Source: a virus. From it: DNA of 64,000 nt. The DNA is taken from positions 32,001 to 96,000 of the IMG/VR virus record IMGVR_UViG_3300035703_000016; one strand, written 5' to 3'. Under the pieces are notes generated by a model that did no database searches, was not told the DNA's origin, and saw only the letters and a program-made list of their open reading frames with translations. Shown piece after piece: positions 2,158-32,254 of the stretch (position 1 is its first letter; every line of letters begins with the position of its first letter). The position numbers and the translations under genes are program-made.

Positions 2158-2640
2158 TTAAAAATTTGAGGTTGAAAGATTTTTCATATACTTTATTGTA
2201 TTCTCATTAGTAATAGTGTGAATATGAGTCATAGCTTCTTGGTCTATTGGAATACACGTATTTCCATCAATCAAGTGTTCAATACAGCTTTTTTTAGTAA
2301 TCATAGTTTTTGGATCTAATTCATAAATCTTTCCTCCGTATCTATTATCTAATTTTGAAAGAGGAACAGCTATAAAATAAGTCCTATAGCTATTCATTAT
2401 TTTTTCAAGTTGATTATTTTTAACCATAAATGATTTATCTTTTATCATAGGAACGAGAGTTTTTACTTCTACGTCTTTTCCATCTACTAATAAATCTCTT
2501 TTTCTATCAAATAGATCTTCTGATAAAAGAACTACTTTTCCTTTTAGAGTGAAATAATTAGCTATTATTTTTTCTCCTAAATTTCCCAGCTCTTTATTTT
2601 TAAAATCCGAAGTATTCGAATATGAATTTAAGTATGACAT
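2158..2640 (-). CDS. PD-(D/E)XK restriction-endonuclease-like protein
   Basis: GNLGE helix, DLLVDG...VEVKT catalytic pattern. Confidence 0.55.
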   Translation of the reverse strand: MSYLNSYSNTSDFKNKELGNLGEKIIANYFTLKGKVVLLSEDLFDRKRDLLVDGKDVEVKTLVPMIKDKSFMVKNNQLEKIMNSYRTYFIAVPLSKLDNRYGGKIYELDPKTMITKKSCIEHLIDGNTCIPIDQEAMTHIHTITNENTIKYMKNLSTSNF

Positions 2641-2644
2641 GTTT

Positions 2645-4441
2645 CTATTTTGATTCTAATATAGATTTGAACTTGAAGTATGATTTATGTTTTTCAACGC
2701 CTGGAATATTCCAACCATTATCGAAATCTTTTATCGTATGTTCTTGTTTTATATAATATTGCCATATTGGATTTTTTATATACTTTAACCATACACACAA
2801 AAGATCTTCTAAGTCAACGGGTTTCATATTATACCTTGCACAAAGTTTGTCAAAATCTTTATACTTAAATCCAGGTCTGAGAATTTTCATAGAGGCAGTT
2901 GCAGTTGGACCTAATTTACACTCAGACCACTCATCTATATCAAATAAACCTTTTATTTTTGTATCTAGATTCACATAATTTGCTAAATCCCCTGCCATTA
3001 ATAAGTAATGAAAATTAAAAGCATGTAGATTATGTTTGCTATTATACTGATTCATTACATCTACTATACCGCATAGACTTGTTTTTGGTTTAATATTCTC
3101 TATTATATGGTCTGCCCATGGTCTAAAATGATTAATAACAAGATCTTTAAGAGGATATCTAGGAGGTTGATTCACGCAACAACTAACAAAATTTCCCTTA
3201 TCTTCTTTCATAAACTTATAAAAGTCTACATGAGAATTATAATTTTGAAAATTTAAAAGAATAGTGTTATTATATCCGTGATTAAATTGATTTGAAGTTC
3301 CAGATCCAAAAATCCTATGAGAATAGATTAAAAATAAATAATCATATATTTCCCAATTTGGATTTGCAATTGGTTTATAAATATCCCAAGTAAGTGATTC
3401 TTTACCCATAAAATAGTCTTCAAGCAAGAATATAAATCCTTCATATCTTCTATCAATATTATGGAATAGGTTTACATTGTCTATGTAATTATCTCCAGTA
3501 TTAAACTCTCTTTTTCTTGTGTCAATAAAGACTTTTTCTGTCTTTCGGTTGATATCGATATAGTAATCCAAACACTCTAAAGCTATCGGATTCCATCCAT
3601 TTTCATCTAGTGTAATATTTGCTTTTGACTTTTTTTCTTTATCTTTTATCAAATACACGCTAGAAGATCCAGAGTTTTTTTCTTCTTCGTTAATAGGAAC
3701 TGGTTCTGCAAAATCATAATAATCTTCAGTCTTACATTGATATTCTTCTTGAGGAACTGGGGGGCTAGATAGAATAAGATCTGATATTGACGTCTTTACG
3801 TCTGGTGTTAGCATATTAAAATGCTTTTCATAGATATGCAAATTTGTTATAAAAAAATGCATTGTGCCAATTTGAGTATTTGTTTCAAAACAAACCATAC
3901 TCATTAATTTTGCAAATGTGTATTGATCATTTGAGAATCCATAGACTAAATCAATACTTCTTGCAAATACTGTAAGATTTAGTCTTCCTTCTACTATGGT
4001 GAAGTTTAGCACAATGTTACAGGGAGTGTCTGAGGCATACCTGTCTAGCTCATTTATATCGTAATGAACAATTATAGCTCTTCTAGTATTAGGGTTGCTC
4101 TTGAGCTCCTGAATAGCTCGTTCTAGCTGACCTCCTTTTTGCCAAAAATATCCATAGTTTGAATTCACTTCATTTGTACCAGGAACTATCATGTTATTCC
4201 ACAGTTTGGCTCTTTTAGCAATTTCAGTCACATCTCTATTTCCTGACAAATACCAATGCCACTCATACTCTGCGTAAGATTGGTTAAATTTTCTCTCTGG
4301 TTCTGTGATAACCATTTGAAGTGGATTATCTAAAGTAAAAGAGACATTAAATTTAGTTTTTGTTTTTGAAAAGTCTACTCCATTTTGCATTATATCAAAA
4401 TATAGACCTCTAAAAGCCTCATTTGCATTTTTAAAATTCAT
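2645..4441 (-). CDS. thymidylate-synthase-family (dCMP hydroxymethylase-like) domain fused to an aGPT-PPlase/amino acid:DNA transferase-like helical domain
   Basis: N-terminal ~210 aa: NSNYG, TRRA, DTPC, RSIDLVYGFSND, NLHIY. C-terminal: FHNIDRR, HRIFGSG, F..LLMAGDL, LGPTA, LEDLLC...KY. Confidence 0.75.
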   Translation of the reverse strand: MNFKNANEAFRGLYFDIMQNGVDFSKTKTKFNVSFTLDNPLQMVITEPERKFNQSYAEYEWHWYLSGNRDVTEIAKRAKLWNNMIVPGTNEVNSNYGYFWQKGGQLERAIQELKSNPNTRRAIIVHYDINELDRYASDTPCNIVLNFTIVEGRLNLTVFARSIDLVYGFSNDQYTFAKLMSMVCFETNTQIGTMHFFITNLHIYEKHFNMLTPDVKTSISDLILSSPPVPQEEYQCKTEDYYDFAEPVPINEEEKNSGSSSVYLIKDKEKKSKANITLDENGWNPIALECLDYYIDINRKTEKVFIDTRKREFNTGDNYIDNVNLFHNIDRRYEGFIFLLEDYFMGKESLTWDIYKPIANPNWEIYDYLFLIYSHRIFGSGTSNQFNHGYNNTILLNFQNYNSHVDFYKFMKEDKGNFVSCCVNQPPRYPLKDLVINHFRPWADHIIENIKPKTSLCGIVDVMNQYNSKHNLHAFNFHYLLMAGDLANYVNLDTKIKGLFDIDEWSECKLGPTATASMKILRPGFKYKDFDKLCARYNMKPVDLEDLLCVWLKYIKNPIWQYYIKQEHTIKDFDNGWNIPGVEKHKSYFKFKSILESK

Positions 4442-4910
4442 GTTGTTGTATTTCTATAAATTGTTTAAGAAATTGTAGGCCATCAGTTTTTCTATATTCT
4501 TCTAAATAGACTACTTTTTTAATTCCAGATTGCAGTATTAATTTTGAACATTCAATACAAGGAGATAGAGTAATATATAAAGTCGCTCCATTTACAGAAT
4601 ATCCAACTTTTGCAGCTTTTAAAATAGCGTTCATCTCTGCATGTATAACTTCTAGAACTGTTACTCCGCCTCTTTCACAACAATTATCTACTCCAGTAGG
4701 AGTTCCATTATAACCGAAAGATACTACATTGTCATCTTTTACTATTATTGCTCCAACTTTAGATCTTTCGCAATGTGACAGTTTAGATATCTCTTTAGCT
4801 ATATTTATATAGACTGTATCTAATTTTTTTTGCTTATCCATAACCTGTATTTTATTTTCTGTATTTATAGTTATTTTTATTCCATAACCATATAGATCAA
4901 AACTATTCAT
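4431..4910 (-). CDS. dCMP deaminase (true start probably the internal Met of MDKQKK)
   Basis: KVGA, GYNG, HAEMNA and PCIEC zinc motifs. Confidence 0.92.
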   Translation of the reverse strand: MNSFDLYGYGIKITINTENKIQVMDKQKKLDTVYINIAKEISKLSHCERSKVGAIIVKDDNVVSFGYNGTPTGVDNCCERGGVTVLEVIHAEMNAILKAAKVGYSVNGATLYITLSPCIECSKLILQSGIKKVVYLEEYRKTDGLQFLKQFIEIQQHEF

Positions 4911-4915
4911 TTTTT

Positions 4916-5347
4916 TTAGTTTACTCCAGTACTACCAAATCCTCCATCTTTTCTTTGTGTCTCTATATCTTCAAGCTCATCTACAACTTCTATACTATCA
5001 TAATTCATAGGAATAAGAATAAATTGAATTATTTTTTGTCCTGGAGTTATTAATACTTGACTATTTCCAGAATTAAAAACATGAATGTGAATTTCTCCAG
5101 TATAGTCTTCATCAACAACTTCAGCTCCCTTTGTTAATTTATTTTTAGTTGCTACTCCAGATTTATTAAAAGCTATTAAAGCATAACCAGATGGGATTCT
5201 TACTTTTATTCCAGAAGGTATTAGAGCGTCTTCTCCTGGGGATAGTAGTATAGGTTCTAAGTCATTAGGTGTATAAAAGTCAATTCCCGCGCTTTTGGAT
5301 GTGCCTCTTGAAGGTGACTTAACGTCACGACATTTTTGAATTTTCAT
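4916..5347 (-). CDS. dut: trimeric dUTPase
   Basis: AGID, KSG, VVDEDYTGEI, IIQ, RKDGGFGSTG (motifs I-V). Confidence 0.93.
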   Translation of the reverse strand: MKIQKCRDVKSPSRGTSKSAGIDFYTPNDLEPILLSPGEDALIPSGIKVRIPSGYALIAFNKSGVATKNKLTKGAEVVDEDYTGEIHIHVFNSGNSQVLITPGQKIIQFILIPMNYDSIEVVDELEDIETQRKDGGFGSTGVN

Positions 5348-5349
5348 TT

Positions 5350-5628
5350 TTATTTAGTTTTATCGTAGTCTTCTTTATAATGTTCTACCATAGCTGTTAA
5401 ATACGCTATAGCATCAAGTATATTATCATATTTTTTAGCATAAGATTCTCTACTCATTTTAAGAGCAACCATGCATAGATACATGTCTTTCGCAGTTATT
5501 TGTTTTCCTGTCATAGTAGAAGCCAAAGTTGCTGCTTTTTCCATGCTCTCTTTCATTGGACCGTATTTTCTAGAGGATTCTTCTGCTCTACGATATACAA
5601 TATCTTGTGCGTGCTCAAGTACATTCAT
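5350..5628 (-). CDS. small helical nucleotide-modification-associated protein (DUF6378/MazG-like)
   Basis: R...YG...M..LK.SR...DNILDAIAY pattern; sits in a nucleotide-metabolism operon. Confidence 0.55.
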   Translation of the reverse strand: MNVLEHAQDIVYRRAEESSRKYGPMKESMEKAATLASTMTGKQITAKDMYLCMVALKMSRESYAKKYDNILDAIAYLTAMVEHYKEDYDKTK

Positions 5629-5655: not shown

Positions 5656-6579
5656 TTAAGAAATTAATTCATGCAAGTACGGAAAATATTTAGGCTTTAG
5701 ATGTACTGACTGCTTAGATTCTAGAATATCCAGCATTTTAGTTCCGTCTGAATCAACCCAATCTTTTGGCCAACTAATATATTTCAATCCAGAATTTTCA
5801 ATCATTTCATTAGCTATGTCTCTTAATTCCATTCTCAATTGCCTACTTCCATAAAATGGTTTACCTTTATATAGTCCAGTTCCAGGTATTTTTCTAGATT
5901 CATGCTCTATAGGTATTAATTCTACTAAAGTTGGATTATTTAACTCTCTTGCAAAATTTATATACTTTGAAAACAGTTTTTCTGTTTCTTTATAGGGATC
6001 TTCCATTCTTCCTAAATGAAATCTTGTGTCTATATTTCCAAAATAAAGTACAACATTGCCAGGCCTCTGTTCATTAATAGCTTGAGCATTTGCATGTTTT
6101 AACCACCCAAATAAAGTCTTACCTGGATTATAACTAAGAGCGTATCCTGGTCTCCATACTGAAAGAGAATGAGAATCTCCTATAACTATATTTGGATTTG
6201 CTTTTGAAAAATAGTCAATAGCTCGACTTATTGGCCAATTATTGCTATCTACTTTTATTCTTTGATTAAATTTTCTAAAATCAAAAGTTTTATTTACAAA
6301 CTCAAATTGTCCATTGAATTTTGAGATAGCTTCCATTTTCTTAGCATGGATTGGACCAGGACCTCCAGGGATATTGAAACTTCCATCTACAAAATTAACT
6401 CCTTCGCAAATATAAAGTTTTTCATATTGATTCCAAGTTTCTGGACTTGGATTAACATCTATATCGTCTTGAGGATTAAAATCCTTAACCATCTTTGTTG
6501 ATATAAGGCCATAAGCACCTCCTTGAAAATTCAAGGAAGTACTCACATTTGCCATAATTGATACTAGAGCAGCTTTCAT
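5656..6579 (-). CDS. SGNH-hydrolase-fold protein
   Basis: IGDSH (block I), FGNID (block III-like), SVHL (catalytic His). Confidence 0.55.
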   Translation of the reverse strand: MKAALVSIMANVSTSLNFQGGAYGLISTKMVKDFNPQDDIDVNPSPETWNQYEKLYICEGVNFVDGSFNIPGGPGPIHAKKMEAISKFNGQFEFVNKTFDFRKFNQRIKVDSNNWPISRAIDYFSKANPNIVIGDSHSLSVWRPGYALSYNPGKTLFGWLKHANAQAINEQRPGNVVLYFGNIDTRFHLGRMEDPYKETEKLFSKYINFARELNNPTLVELIPIEHESRKIPGTGLYKGKPFYGSRQLRMELRDIANEMIENSGLKYISWPKDWVDSDGTKMLDILESKQSVHLKPKYFPYLHELIS

Positions 6580-6596
6580 TTATTTATTTTTATAAA

Positions 6597-8249
6597 TTAC
6601 ATTAATCCTGACATATTTGGAATATCAGAAGTATCGTTATCTTTTTCTGATTTTTTCTGTAAAACCACAGATTCAACAGTTATGATTGTTCCAGCTACTC
6701 CAGCAGCATTTCTAAGAGCAGATATAGCCACTTTAGTAGGATCTAAAAGCCCAAATTCGATCCCGTTTACTACTTTTTTATCTTTGGCATCATATGTTGT
6801 AAATGAATCATTTTGTGTAGAAATTTCATGTAATATCTCATACCAATTTTCTATTCCAGCATTTGATAATATTTTTTTAAATGGAGCCAAGCAAGCAGCA
6901 AGTACTATGTCAAATCCTATTTTTTCATTCTCTTTCCAATCTTTAGTAATGTCTTTTATTCTAGAAATTGCATTTATAAGAGCGATTCCGCCACCAGGAA
7001 GGATTCCTTCAGAGAGAGCTGCTTTTGTTGCTAGAAGCGCATCTTCTACTCTGTCTTTTTTCTCTTTCATTTCAATTTCAGAGTTTCCTCCAACATTGAT
7101 TATTGCAACTCCTCCAATAAGTTTTCCTAAACGTTCTTGTAGTTTTTCTTTTTCAAAAAATGACTGAGCATTATCAATTTGATCTTTTATATCTTTAGAC
7201 CTATCTATTATTGCTTGAGAATCACCTTTTCCATCTACTATAGTTGTTTGTTCTTTTCCTACAGTTACCATTCTAGCGCGACCAAGTAAAGAATCTATCG
7301 TAGCTGGATTTGTTTTTTCTAGCTTATGTCCTTTATTTTTTGACATTACTGTAGCGCCTGTAAGAATTGCTATGTCCTCTAGCATCAAAGTTCTGCGATC
7401 TCCAAAATCTGGAGCTTTAGTAGCACAAACCTTAACCACGCCTCTCATCTTATTTACTATGATAACAGCTAGGGCTTCATCTCCAAAGTCTTCTGCTATT
7501 ATTAATATTGACTTATTCTCAGAATTAGCCTTTTGCAAAAATGGAACTATCTCCTCATGGCTATTTATTCTACCATCATATATCATAATATATGCATCCT
7601 CTAACACAGCTTGCATTGTTGTATTATCTGTTACTAGATACGGACTTTTATATCCTCTGTCAAATTGCATACCTTCAACGACTTCTAAAGTAGTTTCTCC
7701 AGTCTTAGATTCTTCAATAGTTATTAAACCTTCTCTACCGACTTTATCAATAGCTGCTGATATAAGTTCTCCAACTTCAAAATCATTATTTCCAGATATT
7801 ACTGCAACTTGTTTAATTTGCTCTTCTGTGCTAACATCAATAGATAAATTCTTAAGCTCTTGTATAACTAGATTTACTGTTTTATCTATACCTGATTTAA
7901 CTTCAACTGCATTTGTTCCTTGACGTATAGATTTTATTCCCTCTTGAATCATTTTTGTGGCAAGTATAGTAGAAGTTGTTGTACCGTCACCAGCCTCATT
8001 TGCTGATTTTATAGCGACTTGTTTTACCATTTGAGCGCCAATGTCTTCAAAATCGTTTTCTAATCGAGTTATTGACTTTGAACAACTAACTCCATCTTTT
8101 GTGGCTTTTACTTCCCCATTTGGTTCTCTTATTAAAACCGTACGACCTCCAGGACCTAAAGTAGAAGACACTATATCGTTTAGTTTATTAATTCCTACTA
8201 ATAGCTTTTCTTTTAACTCAATTCCTGTTAAGTGTTGTGTTTGACTCAT
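6597..8249 (-). CDS. groEL: chaperonin GroEL
   Basis: TLGPGG, TKDGVS, AGDGTTT, EGMQFDRGY, PGGGIAL, DPTKV. Confidence 0.97.
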   Translation of the reverse strand: MSQTQHLTGIELKEKLLVGINKLNDIVSSTLGPGGRTVLIREPNGEVKATKDGVSCSKSITRLENDFEDIGAQMVKQVAIKSANEAGDGTTTSTILATKMIQEGIKSIRQGTNAVEVKSGIDKTVNLVIQELKNLSIDVSTEEQIKQVAVISGNNDFEVGELISAAIDKVGREGLITIEESKTGETTLEVVEGMQFDRGYKSPYLVTDNTTMQAVLEDAYIMIYDGRINSHEEIVPFLQKANSENKSILIIAEDFGDEALAVIIVNKMRGVVKVCATKAPDFGDRRTLMLEDIAILTGATVMSKNKGHKLEKTNPATIDSLLGRARMVTVGKEQTTIVDGKGDSQAIIDRSKDIKDQIDNAQSFFEKEKLQERLGKLIGGVAIINVGGNSEIEMKEKKDRVEDALLATKAALSEGILPGGGIALINAISRIKDITKDWKENEKIGFDIVLAACLAPFKKILSNAGIENWYEILHEISTQNDSFTTYDAKDKKVVNGIEFGLLDPTKVAISALRNAAGVAGTIITVESVVLQKKSEKDNDTSDIPNMSGLM

Positions 8250-8264
8250 AATTATTTTATATTT

Positions 8265-8624
8265 TTATTCAGTTATTTTTATAAATTTTTTCAGACTATG
8301 CACTACTTGTCTAAATAGATAATCTTTACTTCTTTGTTCTACAGGCAATTCTGAATATGGAATATAGCAAGGATGTTCTTTTGTTTCTACATTTTTAACT
8401 GGTCCGTATTTCCAACCTTCTTCTGTCTTCTGCTTCATCCAACTTTCATGAGAAGCTTCTGGTGTTGCATTTGGGTTATCGATATGAAATTTTACTCCAT
8501 TTTCTGCAGATGATTTTTGCCAGTCTGGCGCTAAGCTCCATGGTAATTGAGACGTATCGCCTATACTTTGACAATATGCCATATTAATTTCGTGTGCTAC
8601 TTGAGCTATATCTTGAATTGTCAT
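8265..8624 (-). CDS. RyR-domain protein
   Basis: HESWM..K..EGWKYGPVK...KEHPC..PYSELP..Q..KD. Confidence 0.8.
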   Translation of the reverse strand: MTIQDIAQVAHEINMAYCQSIGDTSQLPWSLAPDWQKSSAENGVKFHIDNPNATPEASHESWMKQKTEEGWKYGPVKNVETKEHPCYIPYSELPVEQRSKDYLFRQVVHSLKKFIKITE

Positions 8625-8625
8625 G

Positions 8626-8913
8626 TTATGCTAATACTCCCAGTATTTCTGTTTCTTTTGTTAAAAAATAATCTTCTCCAGACATGCTAATTTTAGTAGT
8701 TCCCATTTTAGGAATCATTACTATATCTCCAACATTTAAATTAGACAGGATAACTCTGTCACTATGATAATTAAATGTTCCAGAGACTGCAATAACTTCT
8801 CCAGTTTCTGGTCTTTCTTTTCCCATGTCAGGCAATATAATGTTGCCTACCATTTCTTCGGATGATTCTACGGGCCTTATCAAAATGTACCCATTCATTG
8901 GTTTTATATTCAT
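8626..8913 (-). CDS. groES: co-chaperonin GroES
   Basis: IKPM..YILI, GNIILP mobile loop, GEVIAV, VGDIV, EILGV. Confidence 0.9.
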   Translation of the reverse strand: MNIKPMNGYILIRPVESSEEMVGNIILPDMGKERPETGEVIAVSGTFNYHSDRVILSNLNVGDIVMIPKMGTTKISMSGEDYFLTKETEILGVLA

Positions 8914-9489: not shown

Positions 9490-11799
9490 TTAGTGAGCGT
9501 CTTTAAAGTTTCTTCCTATTTCAGCTGGCGCTTTTAGTTTTATACTTATTTTTGTAGTATTCTCCATTAGCTGTTGAACTAACTCTGCGCATTCTTTAGC
9601 TCGGTCTTCTGGAACTTCGGTTATTATTTGGTCATGTATTTGTCCGCACACTTGTCCGTCAATTCCTCTTTTCTTTAATTCTCTATTTATAGCTATAGCT
9701 GCTCTATTTACTATTGATGCTGATAAACCTTGAATTTGTACGTTAAGTGCGTTATTTAAACCATTGGAGTAATCCCTATAGATCTTTGTTACTTTGTCTT
9801 TTCCATATTGTTTAGACAGCATATTTCTAATCTGCCAATCCATTATACCCTCTCCAATGATGTCATGTATTTTTTTAACTTTATCTAAATGTCTTACTCG
9901 ACCTACTTGAGTTTTTACATATCCCAAAGTTTGAGCTTGAGTTCTAGAGTCATGCATCCATTGTTTCAAGGCAGGAAATCCATTTAAATATCCGTCTACT
10001 AATGTCTGTGCTTTTTTCTGAGATACTCCTAATGTTTTTCCAAGAGCGTATGCGCCCATTCCGTAAGGTATTCCTAGAGAATATGCTTTAGCATCATTTC
10101 TAACTTTTGGCGCATGTTTCCTAAGAAAATTTTCTGACTTTTTATCTGGAGAATATTGATGAAGTCCTTCGGTTTTTATTGCAATAGTAGAATAAAAATC
10201 CCAATTGTTTCTAAATATATCTCTTAACCCCTCATCACCAGACACGTGAGCAAATACGTGAGGCTCTAATGACTCATAATCACAATCTATAAATACATTT
10301 CCAGTATCAGATATAAAAAATGCCCTAATCAAATTTGTATATTCAACTACTATAGGATCATCATCGCCTTCTTCTTTAGGTCTTGGTAATTGTTGAGCAT
10401 CTGACCCATATCTTCCTGAGACTGTGCCATGCTGTTTATAATAAAAAAAATACCTGCCGTTTTCTTGACCATCTAAAAACCTATCCATATAGGTAGATTT
10501 TATCTTTAGTAACTTTCCATATATTCTTAATTTAGAAGCCCAAGAATGTTGATCAGCTATGCTTTGAATTAAGTCTTCGTCAAATTGAGACTTACCTTTT
10601 TTAGTCTGAGAAAGAGGTTTTATTCCAAGAGCATTAAATGCAATATCTCCCATTTGATCTTTGGATTGTATATTGAAAAAAGCTCCATCATTTTCTTTTT
10701 TCCAAAGACTTATACTTATTTTATCTAAATCTTCTTGATCTAAAACATACTCAAATCCTTCTAATAAAAATGTTTTAACTGGAGATGGTGGTAATTTTGA
10801 TACAGTAGACTTTGTAATTGAATATTTTCCAGAAGTTTCTGAAATCGGTAAATCTAAATTAAAATATTTTGCTGTTTCTTGAGCGTATGATCCTTTATTT
10901 TTTGGTGGAAACATCTCTGTTGCCTTGTTCTTAATCCACCTTTGAACTTCTTTACGTTCTAGTAAATCATCAACGACTAGTCTTTCATATTTTTCCATAT
11001 CAAGAGTGATTTTTTCTCTTGATGATTTTATTAATTCAAGATCAATTTTAACTCCTCTATCTTCCATAGGAATTGTGACTTCTCTGTAAAGAGGCATAAC
11101 TTCATCTTCAAAAAAGAATTCAAGTAGTCCTTGTTCTTCTAATTTTTTAAGATAATACTCATATACTCGTAAAGCTAAATCCGTGTCAGCGCATGCATAT
11201 TTAGATAATATATCGATATTTGCTTTAAAAATTTCATAATTATCTTTAGAAGTAGATCCACCATTTGCTTTTATAGATTCTTTTAAGTCTATTTGCTCTT
11301 GATTTGCTTCAGTTTCAACATCAATTCCAATTTCTGATTGTATGCTTCTTGCAACTTCTTTTAATGCAAACACTCCTTGGCCATATTCAGAATTTACACC
11401 CTCTTCTTGAATAGTGTGAACCATAAGCAAAGTATCTGCATAAATAGAATCTATTAAATTTACACCATAGAAATTTTTAATAAATCTAGAGTCAAAAGAT
11501 AAATTATGTCCTATTAGTTTTTTTCCTACTAAAAGAAGTAAAATTTTCTTTGCTATATCATGACAAGAAATACCATCAATCTTAGCGTCCAGGAGCTCGC
11601 CATTAGCATATATCATTGTTGGCAAGTAGTAGCCAAGGCCTTTAACTCCAGTAACAGAGAATCCTATTATTTGACCTTTTCTAGTATTTAAGGAATCTGT
11701 TTCTATATCGACTGAAATATACTCATGTTCTTTTATATGAGCTACCATTTCTTTGACTTTAGTCGAAGTATCTACTTTCAAATAGACTCTTTCTGTCAT
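9490..11799 (-). CDS. polA: family A DNA polymerase with 3'-5' exonuclease
   Basis: ExoI DIET, ExoII HNLSFD, ExoIII YACAD; motif A DYESLE, motif B RNDAKAYSLGIPYG, motif C QIHDQ. Confidence 0.95.
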   Translation of the reverse strand: MTERVYLKVDTSTKVKEMVAHIKEHEYISVDIETDSLNTRKGQIIGFSVTGVKGLGYYLPTMIYANGELLDAKIDGISCHDIAKKILLLLVGKKLIGHNLSFDSRFIKNFYGVNLIDSIYADTLLMVHTIQEEGVNSEYGQGVFALKEVARSIQSEIGIDVETEANQEQIDLKESIKANGGSTSKDNYEIFKANIDILSKYACADTDLALRVYEYYLKKLEEQGLLEFFFEDEVMPLYREVTIPMEDRGVKIDLELIKSSREKITLDMEKYERLVVDDLLERKEVQRWIKNKATEMFPPKNKGSYAQETAKYFNLDLPISETSGKYSITKSTVSKLPPSPVKTFLLEGFEYVLDQEDLDKISISLWKKENDGAFFNIQSKDQMGDIAFNALGIKPLSQTKKGKSQFDEDLIQSIADQHSWASKLRIYGKLLKIKSTYMDRFLDGQENGRYFFYYKQHGTVSGRYGSDAQQLPRPKEEGDDDPIVVEYTNLIRAFFISDTGNVFIDCDYESLEPHVFAHVSGDEGLRDIFRNNWDFYSTIAIKTEGLHQYSPDKKSENFLRKHAPKVRNDAKAYSLGIPYGMGAYALGKTLGVSQKKAQTLVDGYLNGFPALKQWMHDSRTQAQTLGYVKTQVGRVRHLDKVKKIHDIIGEGIMDWQIRNMLSKQYGKDKVTKIYRDYSNGLNNALNVQIQGLSASIVNRAAIAINRELKKRGIDGQVCGQIHDQIITEVPEDRAKECAELVQQLMENTTKISIKLKAPAEIGRNFKDAH

Positions 11800-21112: not shown

Positions 21113-22417
21113 TTAGTTAAAAAAATAAGTTTTTGAATGTCTATGTTTTACTTTAAATTCTCCCTCTTCTAAAATTTGTTTTACTTTTATTAAAAACTCT
21201 TTTCCGTCTTCTATAGAATAATCGAATAAAAAAGAATCATACGTAATAAGTACTAATTTACTTTTATAATTTTGCATCATTTCCCTTAGTTTCTCTATTT
21301 TATAAGAATTTACTCTTGTTTCTAAATTCTGAATCCAATAATTAAATAATTTAAGAGCAGTTATTTCAGAATCTCTTTTTAACATTATCCCCGTTGGTAG
21401 CGTTATGGATCCTTGTTTTTTATACTTAGCCCATATTTTGTTTATAAAATTATCTAAAGATGAAAAAAATAAATGTTTTTTGTATTTATCTTCTATTCCT
21501 CCATATAACTGTCTAAAAGTTATCTCTTTAGATTTATTATACTCTTCTTCTGTTAAATTACTTTTATTAAAGTATATTTTTCCTAATTGAGCGTGTATAG
21601 ACTCTTGAGTATCTTCAAATTGATAATTAATTTGCTTAGCTATTAGTCTTAAATGATAACTGTCAAAATCGAATTCTATTAAATAATCATATCTTGGAAT
21701 AAAACAATCTCTAAACTCTTTATTTTTAGGAATTGCTACAAAATTAATTCCGTTGTATGAGTTTGTAGGTCTACCTGTTGTATTATACATATTATAGTAA
21801 GAATATGCTAATCTAGATTTTATAAAAACTCTACTATCTTCTATTCCATATACTTTTTCAAATAATTTTTGATTTATGCAAATACCAGATTTCTCAACCC
21901 ACTTATATAAAAGGGATATTTTATTTAAAATAGAATAATCATTTTCTAAATCAATTAAAGATTGTACTTTATTGTATAAATTTTCACATCTTTCATAATG
22001 TTTTGTTATAGGAATAATTTCATTTATGCTATCTAATTGTCGTAGTCTTGAGTTAAATTCTCTATGTAAAATTGTACTATATTCTAGTTTTGATGAGTCT
22101 ATCCCCTGTTCTACTCTAGTAAATTGTAAATCTATAACATTCTCTAAATTTAAAAAATAAGAATGAAATTTATAATCCAATAAATACACTTTTTTATGGC
22201 AGTTTATGAAACATTCAATTTGAGCTACTTCTAGGCTAAATCCTTCGCTATGATTCACTGAGAGTATATAACCTTTAGTTCCATCATTATAATAGACCAG
22301 AGAGCATCTGGATAGCTCAGGATGGCATTTATCTGAAGATGGTATTAATTGAATGAAACAAACATCGCTTTTTGGTAAATTATCTAATTGTTCTTTTGTT
22401 TCAATAATAAAATACAT
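21113..22417 (-). CDS. short, divergent family A polymerase paralogue
   Basis: TTGRP.N, motif A DFDSYHLR, motif B K..TF..LYGG, motif C TYDS; exonuclease motifs degenerate. Confidence 0.8.
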   Translation of the reverse strand: MYFIIETKEQLDNLPKSDVCFIQLIPSSDKCHPELSRCSLVYYNDGTKGYILSVNHSEGFSLEVAQIECFINCHKKVYLLDYKFHSYFLNLENVIDLQFTRVEQGIDSSKLEYSTILHREFNSRLRQLDSINEIIPITKHYERCENLYNKVQSLIDLENDYSILNKISLLYKWVEKSGICINQKLFEKVYGIEDSRVFIKSRLAYSYYNMYNTTGRPTNSYNGINFVAIPKNKEFRDCFIPRYDYLIEFDFDSYHLRLIAKQINYQFEDTQESIHAQLGKIYFNKSNLTEEEYNKSKEITFRQLYGGIEDKYKKHLFFSSLDNFINKIWAKYKKQGSITLPTGIMLKRDSEITALKLFNYWIQNLETRVNSYKIEKLREMMQNYKSKLVLITYDSFLFDYSIEDGKEFLIKVKQILEEGEFKVKHRHSKTYFFN

Positions 22418-22474
22418 GACATAACCTATTTTTATTAAAGTATTTTATTTTTTGAATTTTTTTTAACTTTTGTT

Positions 22475-23149
22475 CTAAGTGTTAGGTCTTGCCCATTTTG
22501 AGTAGTCTCCTCCTATAAAATCAATTATTCCAAGTAAAGTTCTATTTAAATTTTCTGTGAGTCTCTTATTCACATCTATTATTCCAGATCTAGTATCATA
22601 TTGATTTATTCTAATAGAATTTAGAGGACCAGTTAATTTCCAAAGAATTTGACCTGTTTGATACATAGATATATCATAAGAAGCTGATCCGTCTTGAATG
22701 CTATTGTATTCTTGTTCTGAAATCTCGATTATAAATCCGATATTATTTTTCTTTTTCACAAAATACCTAATAATGTATCCTCTATCGTAATCACTTGGAA
22801 GAGGGAGCGGATAAAACGATAAAGGACCTGTTGTTGAATTTCCTATTCCATATACCGATTGTTGAGTTGTTGGAGAGGTTATGTTTTTATTATTAGGTGT
22901 AGAATTAGAAAGAGCATCTATCAGTATAGGAGACAAACTTTTATTTGTCAATACTGGAGATTGTTTATATTGTTGCACTGGAGTTAATAACTCGTTTGGT
23001 CCTGAAATAGGATCAGTTCCTGAAAATGCTTTACCGTCATACGTTGTATAAAATTTACCAACATATGGTTTTCCATTTACAGTAAAATCTCCACCAGCTG
23101 TGTTTTGATTAGTCTGTACTCTAAATGAAGGATAATATTTTAATGACAT
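22475..23149 (-). CDS. putative virion/baseplate-associated protein
   Basis: Last gene of the tail operon; PYVGKFY and DYDRGYIIRYF motifs. Confidence 0.5.
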   Translation of the reverse strand: MSLKYYPSFRVQTNQNTAGGDFTVNGKPYVGKFYTTYDGKAFSGTDPISGPNELLTPVQQYKQSPVLTNKSLSPILIDALSNSTPNNKNITSPTTQQSVYGIGNSTTGPLSFYPLPLPSDYDRGYIIRYFVKKKNNIGFIIEISEQEYNSIQDGSASYDISMYQTGQILWKLTGPLNSIRINQYDTRSGIIDVNKRLTENLNRTLLGIIDFIGGDYSKWARPNT

Positions 23150-23150
23150 A

Positions 23151-26100
23151 TTACGTTAATGTTGAAGTATTATCTTTAAATATAGTATTTGCTGCGGCAA
23201 GTCTACCATTAAAATTAGCTGATTCTGCTTTTGGCCTTTCATACTTATTCATTATAATTTTTGTAGCTTGTTCTACAGTAGATGAAGTTTTTATTTCAGA
23301 TAATACATTTGGATAATCTTTTTGTAATTCTTCTACTACAAATTCTAATTGAGTATATAAGTCTGATACGCTTTTATTTTTTTTATATGCAAACATTCTT
23401 AGCTTATCTTGTCTACTTTTTATAGTCCACTGCGCTAGTCCATATCCTACATTTGGAGTTAGCGGAGCAGCTGTTGAGACTTGAGTTGCATTTGGATTTA
23501 ATCTACTTTCTTGCCAAAAATTTCCAACAAATGCAGATGCTTGTTCTGAAGTAAAAATTTCTTTACTTTTTGGAGTAGATTTTCCCGTAAAAAACTGATA
23601 AATTAAATTTGCATTTCTTGGTAAACTTATATTTATTTGTTCTGGGATTATATCTTGATTTTGGATTTCTACTTGAGTTGGAATAATGTCTCTAACTTCT
23701 GACTGACCTTTACTTGGATTTCTTATAAGAGTCATAAATCCATCAATACTAGTTGTCCATTGATTATCTGAAATTGTATGAGATATTTTTGATATTGAAA
23801 AAGCCGTCTTTCTTAAATTTCCTGCTCCATCACTAAGATTTATAGAACTATATCTATACGGTAATAATCTTTCATCTATTGTATATAATTGAAATGGAAA
23901 TAATCCAGACATCCCATCCATTACGACATTAGATTTAACAGGTATTATCATAGCATGTAAACTTTCAGGCTGTTCATTTTTTACTTTTGCCATTTTATCA
24001 ATATAATATGACATAGCTTTATTAATAGAGTCTCTTGATATAAAAAGAGTATCTTGATTTTCACTACCGTCTTCTCTAGAAATACTATAAATACTCTTTA
24101 CTACGTTGTTAAAATTTATAGCAAGTTGAGCAGCTGGAAGATTAGAAGATTCATCCTCAGAATTAGAAGGATCACTAAATTTATATGGAAGATATCTATC
24201 AAAAGATCCAGAATTATAAATTCCAAAATCAGAAGTATTTTTAGAATTTGATACTTGATCTTGAATTCCTGGATTTGAAGATATTGCTATTAAACTAGCT
24301 AGTCTTGAACTTAAATCCGTGCTAATGTTAAATGATCTAGCTATAGATTTTTTGCCATAAATAGGTATTTCGTATTCGTCTGATTGTGAATTAACTATAG
24401 AACTATGAACGCTTTGTAAAGATTCATCTGGTCTTATTTGTATCTGATCATCAGTTATAACATAACAATTAGCTGTATCACTATAGGATAATCTAAATGA
24501 ATTATATAAACCCATACTTTTATTCAAATCAGTTAATATTTTTTCTATGACTGTTTGAAAATAGGCTTCGTTGGTACTACTACTGTTTTTTATAGTCTGA
24601 ATCACATCTTGTAATAGATAATTTATGTCAACCATTACATTCATCAGTCTTCCTATATATCCGTCAGGTTTACCTCCAAATTTTGGAATTTTTTGTTGAG
24701 GAAGAGCGCCACTTAATTTATCATTTGAAAAATCAAATAAAGGTGTTGGTGCTTGAATTGGAATTTGTTGATTTGTATCTTGCAGTTTTGGTAGAACAGC
24801 TTTTATTGAATCATTTTCTATTAATGTTTTATTAAATAACTTTTTATAGTCTTGATTTTTTCCTATGTATGGCACTATAAATTTGTAAGGATCTATAGAT
24901 ATTTGATTTATGCTACTTAAATAAAAATTCGTTTCTGGGTTAAAATCTAAATAAGTCACTGGAGTGAGTGTATCTCCGGTTTTTAATTTTCCAACTGTCT
25001 CTTTGTTATAAAGTAAACTGGTGTGATTTAGCATCAAAAAGAATAATCCTAAATTAATATAGACAGATAGCTTTGGTTTAGAACTTACTTCTAAATCACA
25101 AGATTCTCCGTAAGGAACGGGAACTATTTTAAATAACTCTTTAAAGTTTACTTGAGGAATTACGCCTTTAGCCATTTGATTTTTTAAAATCATCGTGCTA
25201 TTTGAATCATTTTTATAGGCATTTTCCCCAGACATTAAATAAAAATTATTTCCATATCTTAGATTTGCTTCTAATCTATCTAAAGAGTTTAATGTTCCAC
25301 TTATATACTTCTTAAAAAACTCATCATCATATTTTGAATAATCTTCTTCCCACGGAATTCCTTTATTAAATATAGGAGCGTATACTCCTTCAGAAAATAA
25401 ATTTTTTATAAAGTCTTTGTATTCAGGTCTAGATAATAATTGTCTATTAGTCGCATTATTTACTCCGTATAAAAGTATTGATCTTAACATGAGTTCAATA
25501 GTAGACTCAGAATCTACTGTGCCTCTTAAAGCTTCAGCGTTATATTCATTCTGCAAGTCCCTTTCTTTTTGAGATAATTGAGCTAATGCGTCATTTTCGG
25601 CTTTTTGAATAGCAGCATTTCTCTCTTGAAGAAATTTGTTTTCTCTTAAATTTTGAGGACCAATTATGCTGGTTATTATTCCAAAATCTGAATAATCAGA
25701 TATTTTATTTCCAAGTATAATTTTATATTCAGAATTATTTTTTACTGATAATACTATCTTAGAGTGGCTAGAAATATCTGTTTCTATACTATCTATATAA
25801 TACTCTGTATTTGGATTTGAAAATAAAGACTTTGCTGTATCAATAGATCCTCCAGAAATATCAAGTGTTATAGAAAATTTAATATTATTTTTTTGATAAG
25901 ACATATTATCACCAGACTCTTGAAATAATATGTCTACATAGTTTGTAGATGATTTTCTGTCTCCTATTTTTATGTCTAAATTTAATAAAGTTACTCCATC
26001 TATTTTATTATTAACCAATCTATATAAGTAGTCTGTATCTAATTTAACTGATATATTCCCAAAAGATTTTTGTTGGGGTTGACTAGTAATTGCAATATAT

Positions 26101-27524
26101 TTTTCTTTTAGATTATCTTGTGAAGTTTCTCCAAAAAATACAATACCGTCTTTTATATAATAAATCTCTAACCCCTCTACAGTAGATGACTTACTTAAAT
26201 TTTGTTTAATCTTGAAGTTATCTAGTAATGTCTTCGATCTTTTCTTATAATATTCAACGTCTAAATTTGATATTTCTTCTGGTATGACTAATCCAGGAAC
26301 TGCTATAAACTCTCCTGTTCTTGTGTAAATTTTTCTTACTGGAAGAACTTCGGCTGTTTCAGAAACTATAGTCTTTCCGTCTCCGCTGTCTTGTAGATTT
26401 TGATTATTTTTATATTCAGTAAATACTTGAAAATCTCCAGCATTTTTTGAATTTGTGTTAAATAGAACATTACTTAACTTATCAGAAATATCCAATTTTG
26501 CCCAAAGACTTTCGCTTGATTGAATTTTATTTTGAGCCTCTTCAATTGCTTTTTGTTTATCTAATTCTATTTGTTTTAGTATAGCGCTTTTTTCTTTAGA
26601 TTTTTCATTACTCAAATATAACTTTAATTGTTCAAAATAAACATTAGCAAGAGAAGATTTATGAGTAATGGCATAATTTCCTAATACAGATCCAAGCGCT
26701 GTAACTTTTATAATACAATCATACCCACCGTCTTGAGTCAATGTAAAATTAAAAGAAGTAACTAATCCTAACATTCCTCCATAGTTTCCGTAAGATTGTC
26801 TTATATTTGTTGATATTTTTAATCCTATATCTTCTTTTGTAAGTCCAGCTTCAAACGGATTTATCATAAACTGCTCAGACGATTGGATTTTACCAGCATT
26901 ATCATAATACTTTGCATGACCCCACTCCAAAAGAATAGTAAATCCTAAACGAAAATATAATGCATCCATTATGTCAAGCTGATACTTATCCCATACTTTA
27001 AAATTGATGGTAGCTTGTCTAAGAGATCCCATTCTACCTGTTGATTCTACAGTTACAGATGATATTCCAGGCATTGGTTTATACCCAAAGTCTTTTATCT
27101 CTTGCTGACCTAGTAAATTATAAGAATCTAATCCTGATCTTAAATTCATGCCTCTAGTCGTAGATCCGTTAAGATCTCCGATTTCTATATTATTTATACC
27201 TAAAGTGGGTAAATTTAATTGTTGACTTTCAAAAGCATAAGTAGAAGTGCCTCCGTATAAAATAAAATTCTCAGCTAGACTTCTATCATTTGGTAATCCT
27301 AATTGATATGTGCTTTTTAGATAATTTCTAAAATTTTCTTCAAAATTAGCAGAAGATACAACTCTCACCCAAGCTGTTTTATTCGCTAAATAAATTAAAT
27401 CGTCATTTTGTCTCAATTCTCCAGACCCAAGCTCACTTCTTTTTTTTAGTTGACTTGCGGCCCATTCATATATTGGGTAACCAGCTACATTACAAATTCT
27501 TTCTAATTCTTGATTGTTTGGCAT
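23151..27524 (-). CDS. baseplate hub-like protein with C-terminal phage tail lysozyme domain
   Basis: PMPGI and LEWG hub-like N-terminus; C-terminal GNFWQES.LNP, GLAQWT, QLEF, YERP. Confidence 0.75.
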   Translation of the reverse strand: MPNNQELERICNVAGYPIYEWAASQLKKRSELGSGELRQNDDLIYLANKTAWVRVVSSANFEENFRNYLKSTYQLGLPNDRSLAENFILYGGTSTYAFESQQLNLPTLGINNIEIGDLNGSTTRGMNLRSGLDSYNLLGQQEIKDFGYKPMPGISSVTVESTGRMGSLRQATINFKVWDKYQLDIMDALYFRLGFTILLEWGHAKYYDNAGKIQSSEQFMINPFEAGLTKEDIGLKISTNIRQSYGNYGGMLGLVTSFNFTLTQDGGYDCIIKVTALGSVLGNYAITHKSSLANVYFEQLKLYLSNEKSKEKSAILKQIELDKQKAIEEAQNKIQSSESLWAKLDISDKLSNVLFNTNSKNAGDFQVFTEYKNNQNLQDSGDGKTIVSETAEVLPVRKIYTRTGEFIAVPGLVIPEEISNLDVEYYKKRSKTLLDNFKIKQNLSKSSTVEGLEIYYIKDGIVFFGETSQDNLKEKYIAITSQPQQKSFGNISVKLDTDYLYRLVNNKIDGVTLLNLDIKIGDRKSSTNYVDILFQESGDNMSYQKNNIKFSITLDISGGSIDTAKSLFSNPNTEYYIDSIETDISSHSKIVLSVKNNSEYKIILGNKISDYSDFGIITSIIGPQNLRENKFLQERNAAIQKAENDALAQLSQKERDLQNEYNAEALRGTVDSESTIELMLRSILLYGVNNATNRQLLSRPEYKDFIKNLFSEGVYAPIFNKGIPWEEDYSKYDDEFFKKYISGTLNSLDRLEANLRYGNNFYLMSGENAYKNDSNSTMILKNQMAKGVIPQVNFKELFKIVPVPYGESCDLEVSSKPKLSVYINLGLFFLMLNHTSLLYNKETVGKLKTGDTLTPVTYLDFNPETNFYLSSINQISIDPYKFIVPYIGKNQDYKKLFNKTLIENDSIKAVLPKLQDTNQQIPIQAPTPLFDFSNDKLSGALPQQKIPKFGGKPDGYIGRLMNVMVDINYLLQDVIQTIKNSSSTNEAYFQTVIEKILTDLNKSMGLYNSFRLSYSDTANCYVITDDQIQIRPDESLQSVHSSIVNSQSDEYEIPIYGKKSIARSFNISTDLSSRLASLIAISSNPGIQDQVSNSKNTSDFGIYNSGSFDRYLPYKFSDPSNSEDESSNLPAAQLAINFNNVVKSIYSISREDGSENQDTLFISRDSINKAMSYYIDKMAKVKNEQPESLHAMIIPVKSNVVMDGMSGLFPFQLYTIDERLLPYRYSSINLSDGAGNLRKTAFSISKISHTISDNQWTTSIDGFMTLIRNPSKGQSEVRDIIPTQVEIQNQDIIPEQINISLPRNANLIYQFFTGKSTPKSKEIFTSEQASAFVGNFWQESRLNPNATQVSTAAPLTPNVGYGLAQWTIKSRQDKLRMFAYKKNKSVSDLYTQLEFVVEELQKDYPNVLSEIKTSSTVEQATKIIMNKYERPKAESANFNGRLAAANTIFKDNTSTLT

Positions 27525-27527
27525 AAC

Positions 27528-27836
27528 CTATCTTACAGTATTAATTGATTTATATTTATTCAAAATTGTTTGTAAATCTGAAGGAAGTCTTAATTGCATT
27601 CCAACTGGTGGGAATAAACTATCTCCTGGAAGAGAATTTGCTGAGGCTATTACCCACCAATAACTAATATCTCCATAGAAATCTAAAGATAAAAGATCTA
27701 ATCTATCCCCAAGAGTAGTTATGACATAACTATCATTATTAGAAAGTGGAATATCTGGATAAATAGCATTTACATAAAACTGTACGCCTCTTGGGTTATT
27801 TTTCGTTGTTTGTATATTTTGATATCTATTTACCAT
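27528..27836 (-). CDS. LysM/tail-X-like baseplate protein
   Basis: GDRLDLLS..FYGD..YWWVIA.AN, G.QLRLP. Confidence 0.8.
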   Translation of the reverse strand: MVNRYQNIQTTKNNPRGVQFYVNAIYPDIPLSNNDSYVITTLGDRLDLLSLDFYGDISYWWVIASANSLPGDSLFPPVGMQLRLPSDLQTILNKYKSINTVR

Positions 27837-27837
27837 A

Positions 27838-29565: not shown

Positions 29566-29572
29566 TGTTTAT

Positions 29573-31954: not shown

Positions 31955-32254
31955 TTATTTTTTAGACTTAGATACAAAATCAGGAGTCTTTGTTATTGCT
32001 TTTTGCACTTCTGGCGGCATTTTAAATTTTGACATATCAGTGGATTCAGTAATAATATTCCGCTCTTCGTTTTTTTCAGCTTTAATTTTTTCTAAAAACT
32101 CATTAATTTTTTTTAAGCTGTACTGTCTATAAGGAATTGGCATATTCCATACATCTTGCCAAGAAAATCCTCCATTTCCGTGATATACAAGTTCAAAAAC
32201 CTCTTGCATGTAAACCGGTCTATATTCTACTCCCGGGAAAAAAGAAAGAGGCAT
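31955..32254 (-). CDS. tail assembly chaperone C-terminal extension (gpGT-like), probably reached by frameshift
   Basis: Overlaps the 3' end of the upstream ORF in the +1 frame across TTTTTTC; W.DVWNMP motif. Confidence 0.65.
   Translation of the reverse strand: MPLSFFPGVEYRPVYMQEVFELVYHGNGGFSWQDVWNMPIPYRQYSLKKINEFLEKIKAEKNEERNIITESTDMSKFKMPPEVQKAITKTPDFVSKSKK

Follow-up and report, generated by a model that had tools for sequence, protein, structure and literature searches.

A candidate kinase-free pathway for cytosine hypermodification in phages: a predicted dCMP hydroxymethylase fused to an all-helical aGPT-PPlase-superfamily domain

Thymidine hypermodification, as described for the phages M6, ViI, PaMx11, PhiW-14 and SP10, relies on a dUMP hydroxymethylase, a 5-hmdU DNA kinase, a clade 2 aGPT-PPlase/amino acid:DNA transferase and PLP or FAD tailoring (PMC8989533, PMC11472151). 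M6 gp51 acts through a Cys-C6 adduct and an exocyclic methylene with phosphate as the leaving group, and the Glu and Cys types of the catalytic pair are both essential in M6 gp51 and ViI gp247. PaMx11 gp46 is the one solved amino acid:DNA transferase; its nucleophile towards C6 is Cys247, and its metal ligands are Glu243 and Thr244. Known phage cytosine hypermodifications are mainly sugars, plus a carbamoyl group. Within the thymidylate synthase (TS) family, Asp177 (E. coli numbering) has been linked to dCMP as the substrate, an acidic residue 143 to hydroxymethylation and Asn169 to 5-hydroxylation (PMC13326640), markers which, Asp at L143 included, are correlations with activity; residue His147 also separates modified from unmodified genomes (PMC8670742). 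Here, we describe a phage locus that, with a probability of roughly one half, belongs to a three-enzyme, kinase-free pathway for cytosine hypermodification, two members of which are fused in a single gene.

The window analysed is a stretch of 64,000 nucleotides (positions 32,001 to 96,000 of IMG/VR record IMGVR_UViG_3300035703_000016); the source record comprises 158,434 bp, has direct terminal repeats and is rated 100% complete. The fusion ORF (2645-4441, minus strand) encodes a protein of 598 aa, and its domains and neighbouring genes are listed in Table 1. The same fusion is found in at least 10 other protein clusters, with 75-90% identity within the helical domain and alongside several unfused proteins, and this recurrence led us to reject an assembly chimera as the origin of the ORF. 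The genes upstream of the fusion on the same strand code for a family A polymerase, GroES-like and GroEL-like proteins, the 307-aa protein, a DUF6378 protein, a dUTPase and a dCMP deaminase; as a guess, the DUF6378 protein may sanitise the nucleotide pool. The 160-aa ORF following the fusion had no Pfam or PHROG match. GT1/GT2-type genes are located 3 to 13 kb downstream of the fusion. The source genome has a small AAA_33 kinase-like gene, and searches of it gave no PLP-enzyme, inositol-synthase or MazG gene and no second helical gene. In a search of sequencing runs, no RNA run was listed, and a full match came from one run, a subsurface metagenome that may be the source.

Table 1. Features of the fusion gene and its neighbours, in positions of the window.
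Feature	Position	Strand	Basis and remarks
TS-family domain, aa 1-212, predicted dCMP hydroxymethylase	3806..4441	minus	Cys141 catalytic; Asp138 = L143D, Asp164 = D169, Asp172 = N177D, Asn142 replaces H147
Acidic variable linker, aa 213-274	3620..3805	minus	Alignment; split relatives retain it at the N terminus of their helical protein
All-helical aGPT-PPlase/HhH-glycosylase-superfamily domain, aa 275-598 (as modelled)	2645..3619	minus	Glu545-Asp546-x2-Cys549; divergent Val550 sub-clade
307-aa two-domain protein, SGNH fold at aa 127-304, proposed 5hmC O-acyltransferase	5656..6579	minus	Model and conserved residues
DUF6378 protein, frequent module neighbour	5350..5628	minus	PF19905, E 1.5e-12; present in 27/28 large loci
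dUTPase	4916..5347	minus	PF00692; MazG-like genes in its place in relatives
dCMP deaminase-family gene, accessory, not core	4431..4910	minus	PF00383; 11-base overlap with the fusion start
160-aa ORF after the fusion	2158..2640	minus	PD-(D/E)xK-like by eye; only in some close relatives

Residues 49-216 of the fusion match PF00303 (E 7.6e-27), and among the PDB sequences matched, T4 dCMP hydroxymethylase ranks second (E 1.5e-15). In the alignment with the T4 enzyme, Asp172 falls on T4 Asp179 and E. coli Asn177 and Cys141 aligns with T4 Cys148, in agreement with the preliminary description of this DNA, which had read the domain as dCMP-type. With Asp172, Asp138 and Asp164, it carries all three dCMP-hydroxymethylase markers (N177D, L143D and D169), and the His147 position is occupied by Asn142. 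The D/D/D markers were seen in each of the 60 TS genes scored (60/60; loci of at least 12 kb from three IMG/VR searches). The active-site residues strongly suggest that the TS domain is a dCMP hydroxymethylase and not a 5-hydroxylase. Of the "(hydroxy)methylation" proposed earlier, hydroxymethylation is favoured over methylation by Asp138, the L143D marker. The 5-hydroxy-dCMP synthases of RB69 and DLP3 (PMC13326640) share N177D and the acidic L143 with the TS domain, but such an activity was rejected here, as the diagnostic D169N is absent and Asp164 is found instead. A plain dTMP supply was likewise rejected: a separate canonical ThyA (Asn177, His147, Leu143) is encoded at genome positions 129,997-131,169, so that the TS domain is not needed for dTMP, and the domain has the dCMP-type set Asp172, Asn142 and Asp138 in place of the canonical residues.

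The aGPT-PPlase clades were reportedly defined by Iyer et al. in 2013. Residues 275-598 of the fusion gave no Pfam or PHROG match, a PDB sequence search was also empty, and an exhaustive homologue search returned 37 representatives, most of them with 24-33% identity. The best PDB structure match to the AlphaFold model (pLDDT 94) was PaMx11 gp46 (Z 8.6, rmsd 3.8, 196 aligned residues), a Z score tied with those of the queuine-salvage enzymes and within the chance range for helical proteins; these enzymes and a run of HhH glycosylases follow in the list. Foldseek retrieved a protein named amino acid:DNA transferase domain (E 6.8e-8, TM 0.74), the Atlas structure match to a labelled family member reached TM 0.70, and ESM Atlas features place the domain beside PF18723 clusters (0.96). 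The Z score is modest, yet the coherent PDB list and the Foldseek and Atlas matches agree, and on the strength of the model we assign the domain to the aGPT-PPlase/HhH-glycosylase superfamily, as had been suspected from its motifs, below the cut-off of clades 1 and 2. PF18723 HMUDK_hel (clade 1) found no match in the source genome at E 10 and reached E 0.01 with the best of 50 homologues; PF18724 ADDT (clade 2) had no match in the genome and E 0.001 with the best homologue, the PaMx11 control giving E 3e-29. An hhalign comparison of the helical family with the PF18723-positive clade was weak (probability 4%). By motif, the domain resembles clade 1 (PF18723), and clade 1-like proteins are without demonstrated activity. 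M6 gp55, which is dispensable in reconstitution, probably belongs to clade 1 judging by its synteny with PaMx11 gp50. A tblastn search of cultured phages with a member of the helical family gave no match, and hence no cultured carrier was found for this helical clade.

The acidic linker and the four C-terminal motifs pointed out earlier are all present, the motifs starting at residues 326, 477, 511 and 544. The spacing between Glu545 and Cys549 (Glu-x3-Cys) equals that of Glu243 and Cys247 in PUGT by motif, and the ends of the structural alignment agree in register. Among 50 homologues with a mean identity of about 25%, Glu545 is invariant and Cys549 near-invariant. The residue directly after Cys549 was confirmed as Val550 in the fusion ORF sequence. 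This valine marks a sub-clade, and Asp is found at the same position in 138 other loci-derived family members. All sub-clade members, from large and small phages alike, keep Glu545, Asp546 and Cys549; in the loci read the sub-clade never has a PLP neighbour, and it adds no inositol synthase either. The valine had been held against the assignment, a caveat that loses its force with PaMx11 gp46, which has a Lys after its catalytic Cys and a Glu four residues before it, as here; it is the clade 1 motif, as in PaMx11 gp50, that has an acidic residue in this place.

The 307-aa protein was modelled with a pLDDT of 90 and contains an SGNH fold at residues 127-304 (Z 12.2); its PDB fold rows (50/50) were dominated by SGNH/GDSL entries. 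With the SGNH/GDSL hydrolases and O-acetyltransferases (OatA-C, PatB, acetyl esterases) it shares the fold (Z 10-12), blocks I and III and the block-V His, and in the family alignment Ser136, His137 and His293 are invariant and Gly181-Asn182 near-invariant. It differs from these enzymes in an extra N-terminal domain of 120 aa and in the missing block-V Asp, the place of which is taken by the variable Gln290; the invariant Glu287 might act as a substitute. We know of no SGNH/GDSL member that acts on DNA bases, and none was found in the literature searched. The N-terminal domains of two distant helical homologues, P0035 and P0053, are homologous to the SGNH gene (E 1e-36 and 1e-48), and SGNH-helical fusions are thus seen in these two proteins and in ORF233c of Aeromonas phage 44RR2.8t. 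A complex prediction for the SGNH protein and the helical domain scored 0.00, which we count neither for nor against an interaction. We would give even odds to the prediction that the SGNH protein is an activator of 5hmC in DNA.

IMG/VR was scanned from both sides, via the helical gene and via the SGNH gene. The most constant partner was the SGNH gene, to which the preliminary description had not drawn attention. Of the loci found via the helical gene, 46 had flanks of 2.5 kb or more on each side, and the SGNH gene was present in every one of them (46/46); as many of these loci are near-copies, the fairer numbers are the cluster counts, 17/17 at 70% and 9/9 at 50% identity. A PLP-enzyme gene occurs in 44 of the 46 loci and a match to the PaMx11 kinase in none of them (0/46). 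In a second helical clade, which passes PF18723, 41 of 43 loci contain the SGNH gene and all of them (43/43) a gene for an inositol-phosphate synthase. The SGNH gene itself was seen in at least 554 IMG/VR stretches and 619 protein clusters, and it is kept with a PLP kit, with an inositol kit and with no partner kit at all. One complete genome has its helical gene 110 kb away and none locally, and in another the SGNH gene sits away from the helical gene, each being the only large genome tested for the gene missing locally. A group transfer with differing nucleophiles agrees with the PLP and inositol synthase neighbours. A PLP decarboxylase can act only on a free alpha-carboxyl, and an aminoacyl ester would leave none available. 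In 44RR2.8t, the SGNH-helical fusion adjoins a sodium:solute symporter gene. At the same locus of Aeromonas phage 25, the SGNH gene lies beside glycosyltransferase-like and UDP-galactopyranose-mutase-like genes (both by eye), and no helical gene was detected in this genome. Similarly, Tenacibaculum phage PTm1 combines an SGNH gene with a D169N-type TS, and no helical gene was detected in it. These two phages indicate that the SGNH protein can occur independently of the helical enzyme; it seems that the helical gene needs the SGNH gene and not the reverse, a one-way dependence that fits an activator with a stand-alone product and equally a finishing enzyme.

The module has in common with the thymidine hypermodification pathway a TS-family hydroxymethylase, an HhH-like helical Glu-x3-Cys enzyme and, in most module relatives, a PLP enzyme, but it has dCMP markers, an SGNH partner and a TS fusion and no PF18748 kinase, and its single helical gene, below the PF18723 and PF18724 cut-offs, stands in place of a clade 1 and clade 2 pair. 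It would work like that pathway but is not a member of it, since neither the kinase nor dUMP specificity is found. The T4 gp42 system (td, cd, gp56, alpha/beta-glucosyltransferases) shares with the locus L143D/D169/N177D, a separate ThyA, the deaminase and the dUTPase, whereas the locus has a family A polymerase, no T4-type glucosyltransferase detected and a second step that is predicted not to use a sugar nucleotide. The 5hmC carbamoyltransferase clusters, which make 5-carbamoyloxymethylcytosine (PMC8670742), likewise have an N177D TS and deaminase and pyrophosphohydrolase neighbours, and we propose their type of reaction, O-acylation of 5hmC in DNA, for the SGNH protein; they differ in that the source genome has no carbamoyltransferase gene (PF02543), the SGNH fold is unrelated and there is an extra helical enzyme.

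We propose that, in the first step, the TS domain would convert dCMP to 5-hydroxymethyl-dCMP, as strongly suggested by its active-site markers; the deaminase, the dUTPase and the separate ThyA would deplete dCMP and provide dTMP, and 5hmC would enter DNA through the phage polymerase. In the second step, the weakest of the scheme, the SGNH protein might use Ser136 and His293 to O-acylate the 5-hydroxymethyl group in DNA, which would create a leaving group instead of phosphate. In the third step, judging by fold and catalytic pair, the helical domain would flip the base, Cys549 would add to C6 and the acyl group would depart, after which a small nucleophile would add to the exocyclic methylene. 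That the helical domain carries out some further modification in DNA appears probable. In relatives, the nucleophile would probably be an amino acid where a PLP enzyme adjoins, or inositol where an inositol-phosphate synthase does. As the source locus contains no accessory gene, the product of the source phage would most likely carry, on the C5-methyl of cytosine, a host metabolite left untrimmed, for instance an amino acid or a polyamine. The modification would likely serve the protection from restriction and CRISPR nucleases. One might speculate, at a little under even odds, that hundreds of phages use an SGNH enzyme to acylate 5hmC in DNA and a divergent aGPT-PPlase to swap the acyl group for a nucleophile, yielding amino-acid-, amine- or inositol-linked methylcytosines; if this route is true, the source locus might, equally tentatively, be its minimal form.

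The base that is modified is very probably cytosine. The preliminary description had offered deamination as an alternative, in which 5hmdCMP would be converted to 5hmdUMP, the DNA would contain 5hmU and the helical domain would perform ordinary thymidine hypermodification. We give this little probability, even if the fusion is directly adjoined by the deaminase gene, 5hmdCTP is a substrate for some phage deaminases (bioRxiv 10.1101/2024.12.05.627091) and every characterised aGPT-PPlase acts on 5hmU. No PF00383 gene was found in seven records with the module, of which five are at least 97% complete, with 12/14 control genomes positive, and these five complete module phages without a dCMP deaminase argue against a route through hmU. 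A canonical ThyA is encoded in the source genome, 44RR2.8t, phage 25 and others, 44RR2.8t and phage 25 each having it together with a D/D/D enzyme and with the T4 genes directed against DNA that contains unmodified cytosine; in 44RR2.8t, gene 42 is accompanied by alc, denA and denB, which with it make up the T4 set for a genome with modified cytosine (PMC2993671). At position 177, PaMx11 gp51 has Asn and all scored module loci have Asp. No 5hmU kinase was found either, in line with what had been noted for the window: the genome-wide PF18748 search was empty, as it was for 12 other genomes, nine of these 12 being complete or cultured (0/13 in all); the PaMx11 kinase control gave a weak signal (E 9e-5), so that a divergent kinase could be missed. 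A dCMP methylase is another reading of the TS domain, with 5mC in the DNA, an adjacent deaminase that channels some of the 5mdC pool into thymidine nucleotides, along the lines proposed for Xp12-like phages, and a glycosylase-like repair or proofreading role of the helical domain. It would agree with the HhH glycosylases that come close behind in the fold search, and 5/7 tested deaminase-linked N177D enzymes made 5mdCMP (bioRxiv 10.1101/2024.12.05.627091). We nevertheless regard it as very unlikely due to the Asp at L143, a reported hydroxymethylase marker by correlation only, the genome's own ThyA, the lack of the deaminase in five complete relatives and the PLP and inositol neighbours, which would make no sense for 5mC.

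Other readings accept 5hmC as the starting point and differ in the roles of the two later enzymes. The SGNH protein could serve as a finishing enzyme (acyltransferase or esterase) with 5hmC or the group already attached as its substrate, and the helical domain could use 5hmC unactivated or activated by an unrecognised kinase of phage or host. The replacement of the helical gene by a glycosyltransferase and a sugar mutase at the same locus in phage 25, which keeps the SGNH gene, speaks for this, as does the AAA_33 gene in the source genome, and the 5hmC carbamoyltransferase is a precedent for direct O-acylation (PMC8670742). However, characterised aGPT-PPlases require a leaving group, complete module-bearing phages of 32-39 kb have no PF18748 kinase, and the constancy of the SGNH gene across PLP, inositol or no kit suits a common first step, so that we consider a finishing role rather unlikely. 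The Val550 helical domain could also be a non-catalytic helper for DNA binding or base flipping, the base being 5hmC, acyl-5hmC or 5hmC glycosylated by the nearby glycosyltransferases. This is improbable given that Glu545, Asp546 and Cys549 are invariant across the sub-clade, that its small phages lack such a GT cluster beside the module and that neither a T4 beta-glucosyltransferase (a search without positive control) nor a carbamoyltransferase was matched in the genome; the loss of the PLP neighbour in the sub-clade, the Val in place of the Asp of the 138 other members, the clade 1 proteins without demonstrated activity and the downstream GT1/GT2-type genes would fit it. We thus favour activation of 5hmC by the SGNH protein followed by group transfer through the helical domain.

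If this reading is true, the locus would encode the first SGNH enzyme on a DNA base and the first aGPT-PPlase on cytosine. The new pyrimidine suspected earlier would probably be an undescribed modified cytosine, and from the module one would predict a transfer of groups other than sugars to cytosine and a new activation of the hydroxymethyl base. No description of SGNH or inositol in connection with phage cytosine modification was found in the literature covered, a coverage that left out the aGPT-PPlase clade paper (Iyer et al., 2013) and most subscription journals. Gene 42 occurs without a glucosyltransferase in the Aeromonas phages 44RR2.8t, 31 and 25, and what covers their hmC has been stated as an open question (PMC2993671). 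The module offers an answer, and because the SGNH-helical fusion ORF233c is encoded by both 44RR2.8t and 31, the idea is testable on these cultured phages. Epigenetic sequencing would also benefit from enzymes that label 5hmC in DNA.

The fusion of the TS and helical domains had been presented as the point of the system. This emphasis is not borne out, as the two halves are separate genes in most relatives. A tree built from the helical domain places the 12 fused and the 3 split forms in one group (93/89) and seven stand-alone proteins outside it. The fused forms are basal under a root that rests on long branches; a single fusion with later splits is likely. Substrate channelling as a reason for the fusion was rejected, because the halves act before and after replication, respectively, and are split in close relatives. 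The fusion is a local, lineage-specific arrangement and not part of the mechanism: a phage with split halves (L009) and one with the fused gene (L060) are more than 99% identical on either side of an inserted 1-kb segment with a GIY-YIG-like ORF.

The gene for the SGNH-fold protein, the candidate activator of 5hmC in DNA, is found with several sets of partners. In one conserved block it is joined by the inositol-phosphate synthase, HAD-like phosphatase and PF18723 helical genes, frequently with an FkbM-like or C5-methylase-like gene as well. Aeromonas phage 44RR2.8t has an SGNH-helical fusion preceded by a symporter, which may import the nucleophile; all remaining members of the fusion's clade have an inositol-phosphate synthase neighbour. 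In Aeromonas phage 25, the symporter and the helical domain are exchanged for mutase-like and glycosyltransferase-like genes; these lie beside the SGNH gene and suggest galactofuranosylated hmC. The closest cultured TS, that of Bacteroides phage BF503P4, shares 45% identity and the D/D/D markers and has another TS homologue nearby, and the search with the SGNH gene gave no match in any Bacteroides phage. The TS-helical fusion is apparently split by a GIY-YIG-like ORF in two relatives. At L013, a relative's locus, an HhH-GPD-like gene also adjoins the first helical gene.

Coordinates of module variants, partner genes and other genes (L001 to L003, stretches of the phage genome; other L-numbers, loci of relatives or cultured phages)
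Feature	Position	Strand	Remarks
Inositol-phosphate synthase, small HAD-like phosphatase, PF18723 helical and SGNH genes	L221-L299; examples L016:8905-12392, L027:5306-8981		
Sodium:solute symporter, then SGNH-helical fusion	L039:4408-8388		44RR2.8t ORF234c-233c
UDP-galactopyranose-mutase-like and glycosyltransferase-like genes	L042:1135-4406		Phage 25
Second TS homologue	L047, about 123,200-123,900		Tenacibaculum phage PTm1; D169N marker of 5-hydroxy-dCMP synthases
GIY-YIG-like ORF	L007:4653-5285; L009:9379-10008		By eye; between TS and helical halves
Second, more divergent helical gene	L013:6163-8991; L115		Adjoins the first
GroEL-like and GroES-like genes	Window 6597-8913	-	Phage-encoded; directly upstream of module
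Full polymerase	Window 9490-11799		Separate from 434-aa ORF
434-aa ORF	Window 21113-22417	-	Family A polymerase-like motifs by eye
Glycosyltransferase-like cluster	Genome 22,334-31,742 (L001:7335-16743)		Ends ~260 bases before window
Guanylate-kinase-family gene	Genome 127,581-128,105 (L003)		
Canonical ThyA	Genome 129,997-131,169 (L003)		
AAA_33 kinase-like gene	Genome 142,701-143,795 (L003)		Adjoins metallophosphoesterase-like gene

Elsewhere in the phage genome, the guanylate-kinase-family protein could act as the dNMP kinase for 5hmdCMP; its gene is separated from ThyA by a UV-damage-endonuclease-like gene (by eye). The AAA_33 kinase-like protein probably functions in nucleic-acid end repair, and is conceivably a base kinase instead. 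The glycosyltransferase-like cluster, with two PF00534 matches, several GT2-like genes (by eye) and a TylF methyltransferase gene, could function in capsid or DNA glycosylation.

Close relatives keep the GroEL-like and GroES-like genes upstream of the module. The 434-aa ORF had no Pfam match. A cytidylyltransferase-like domain is fused to DUF6267 in an 815-aa protein (genome 100,120-102,567; L002:6121-8568), and three short ORFs at one genome end (genome 1-339, 2265-2615 and 5150-5599) have near-identical starts.
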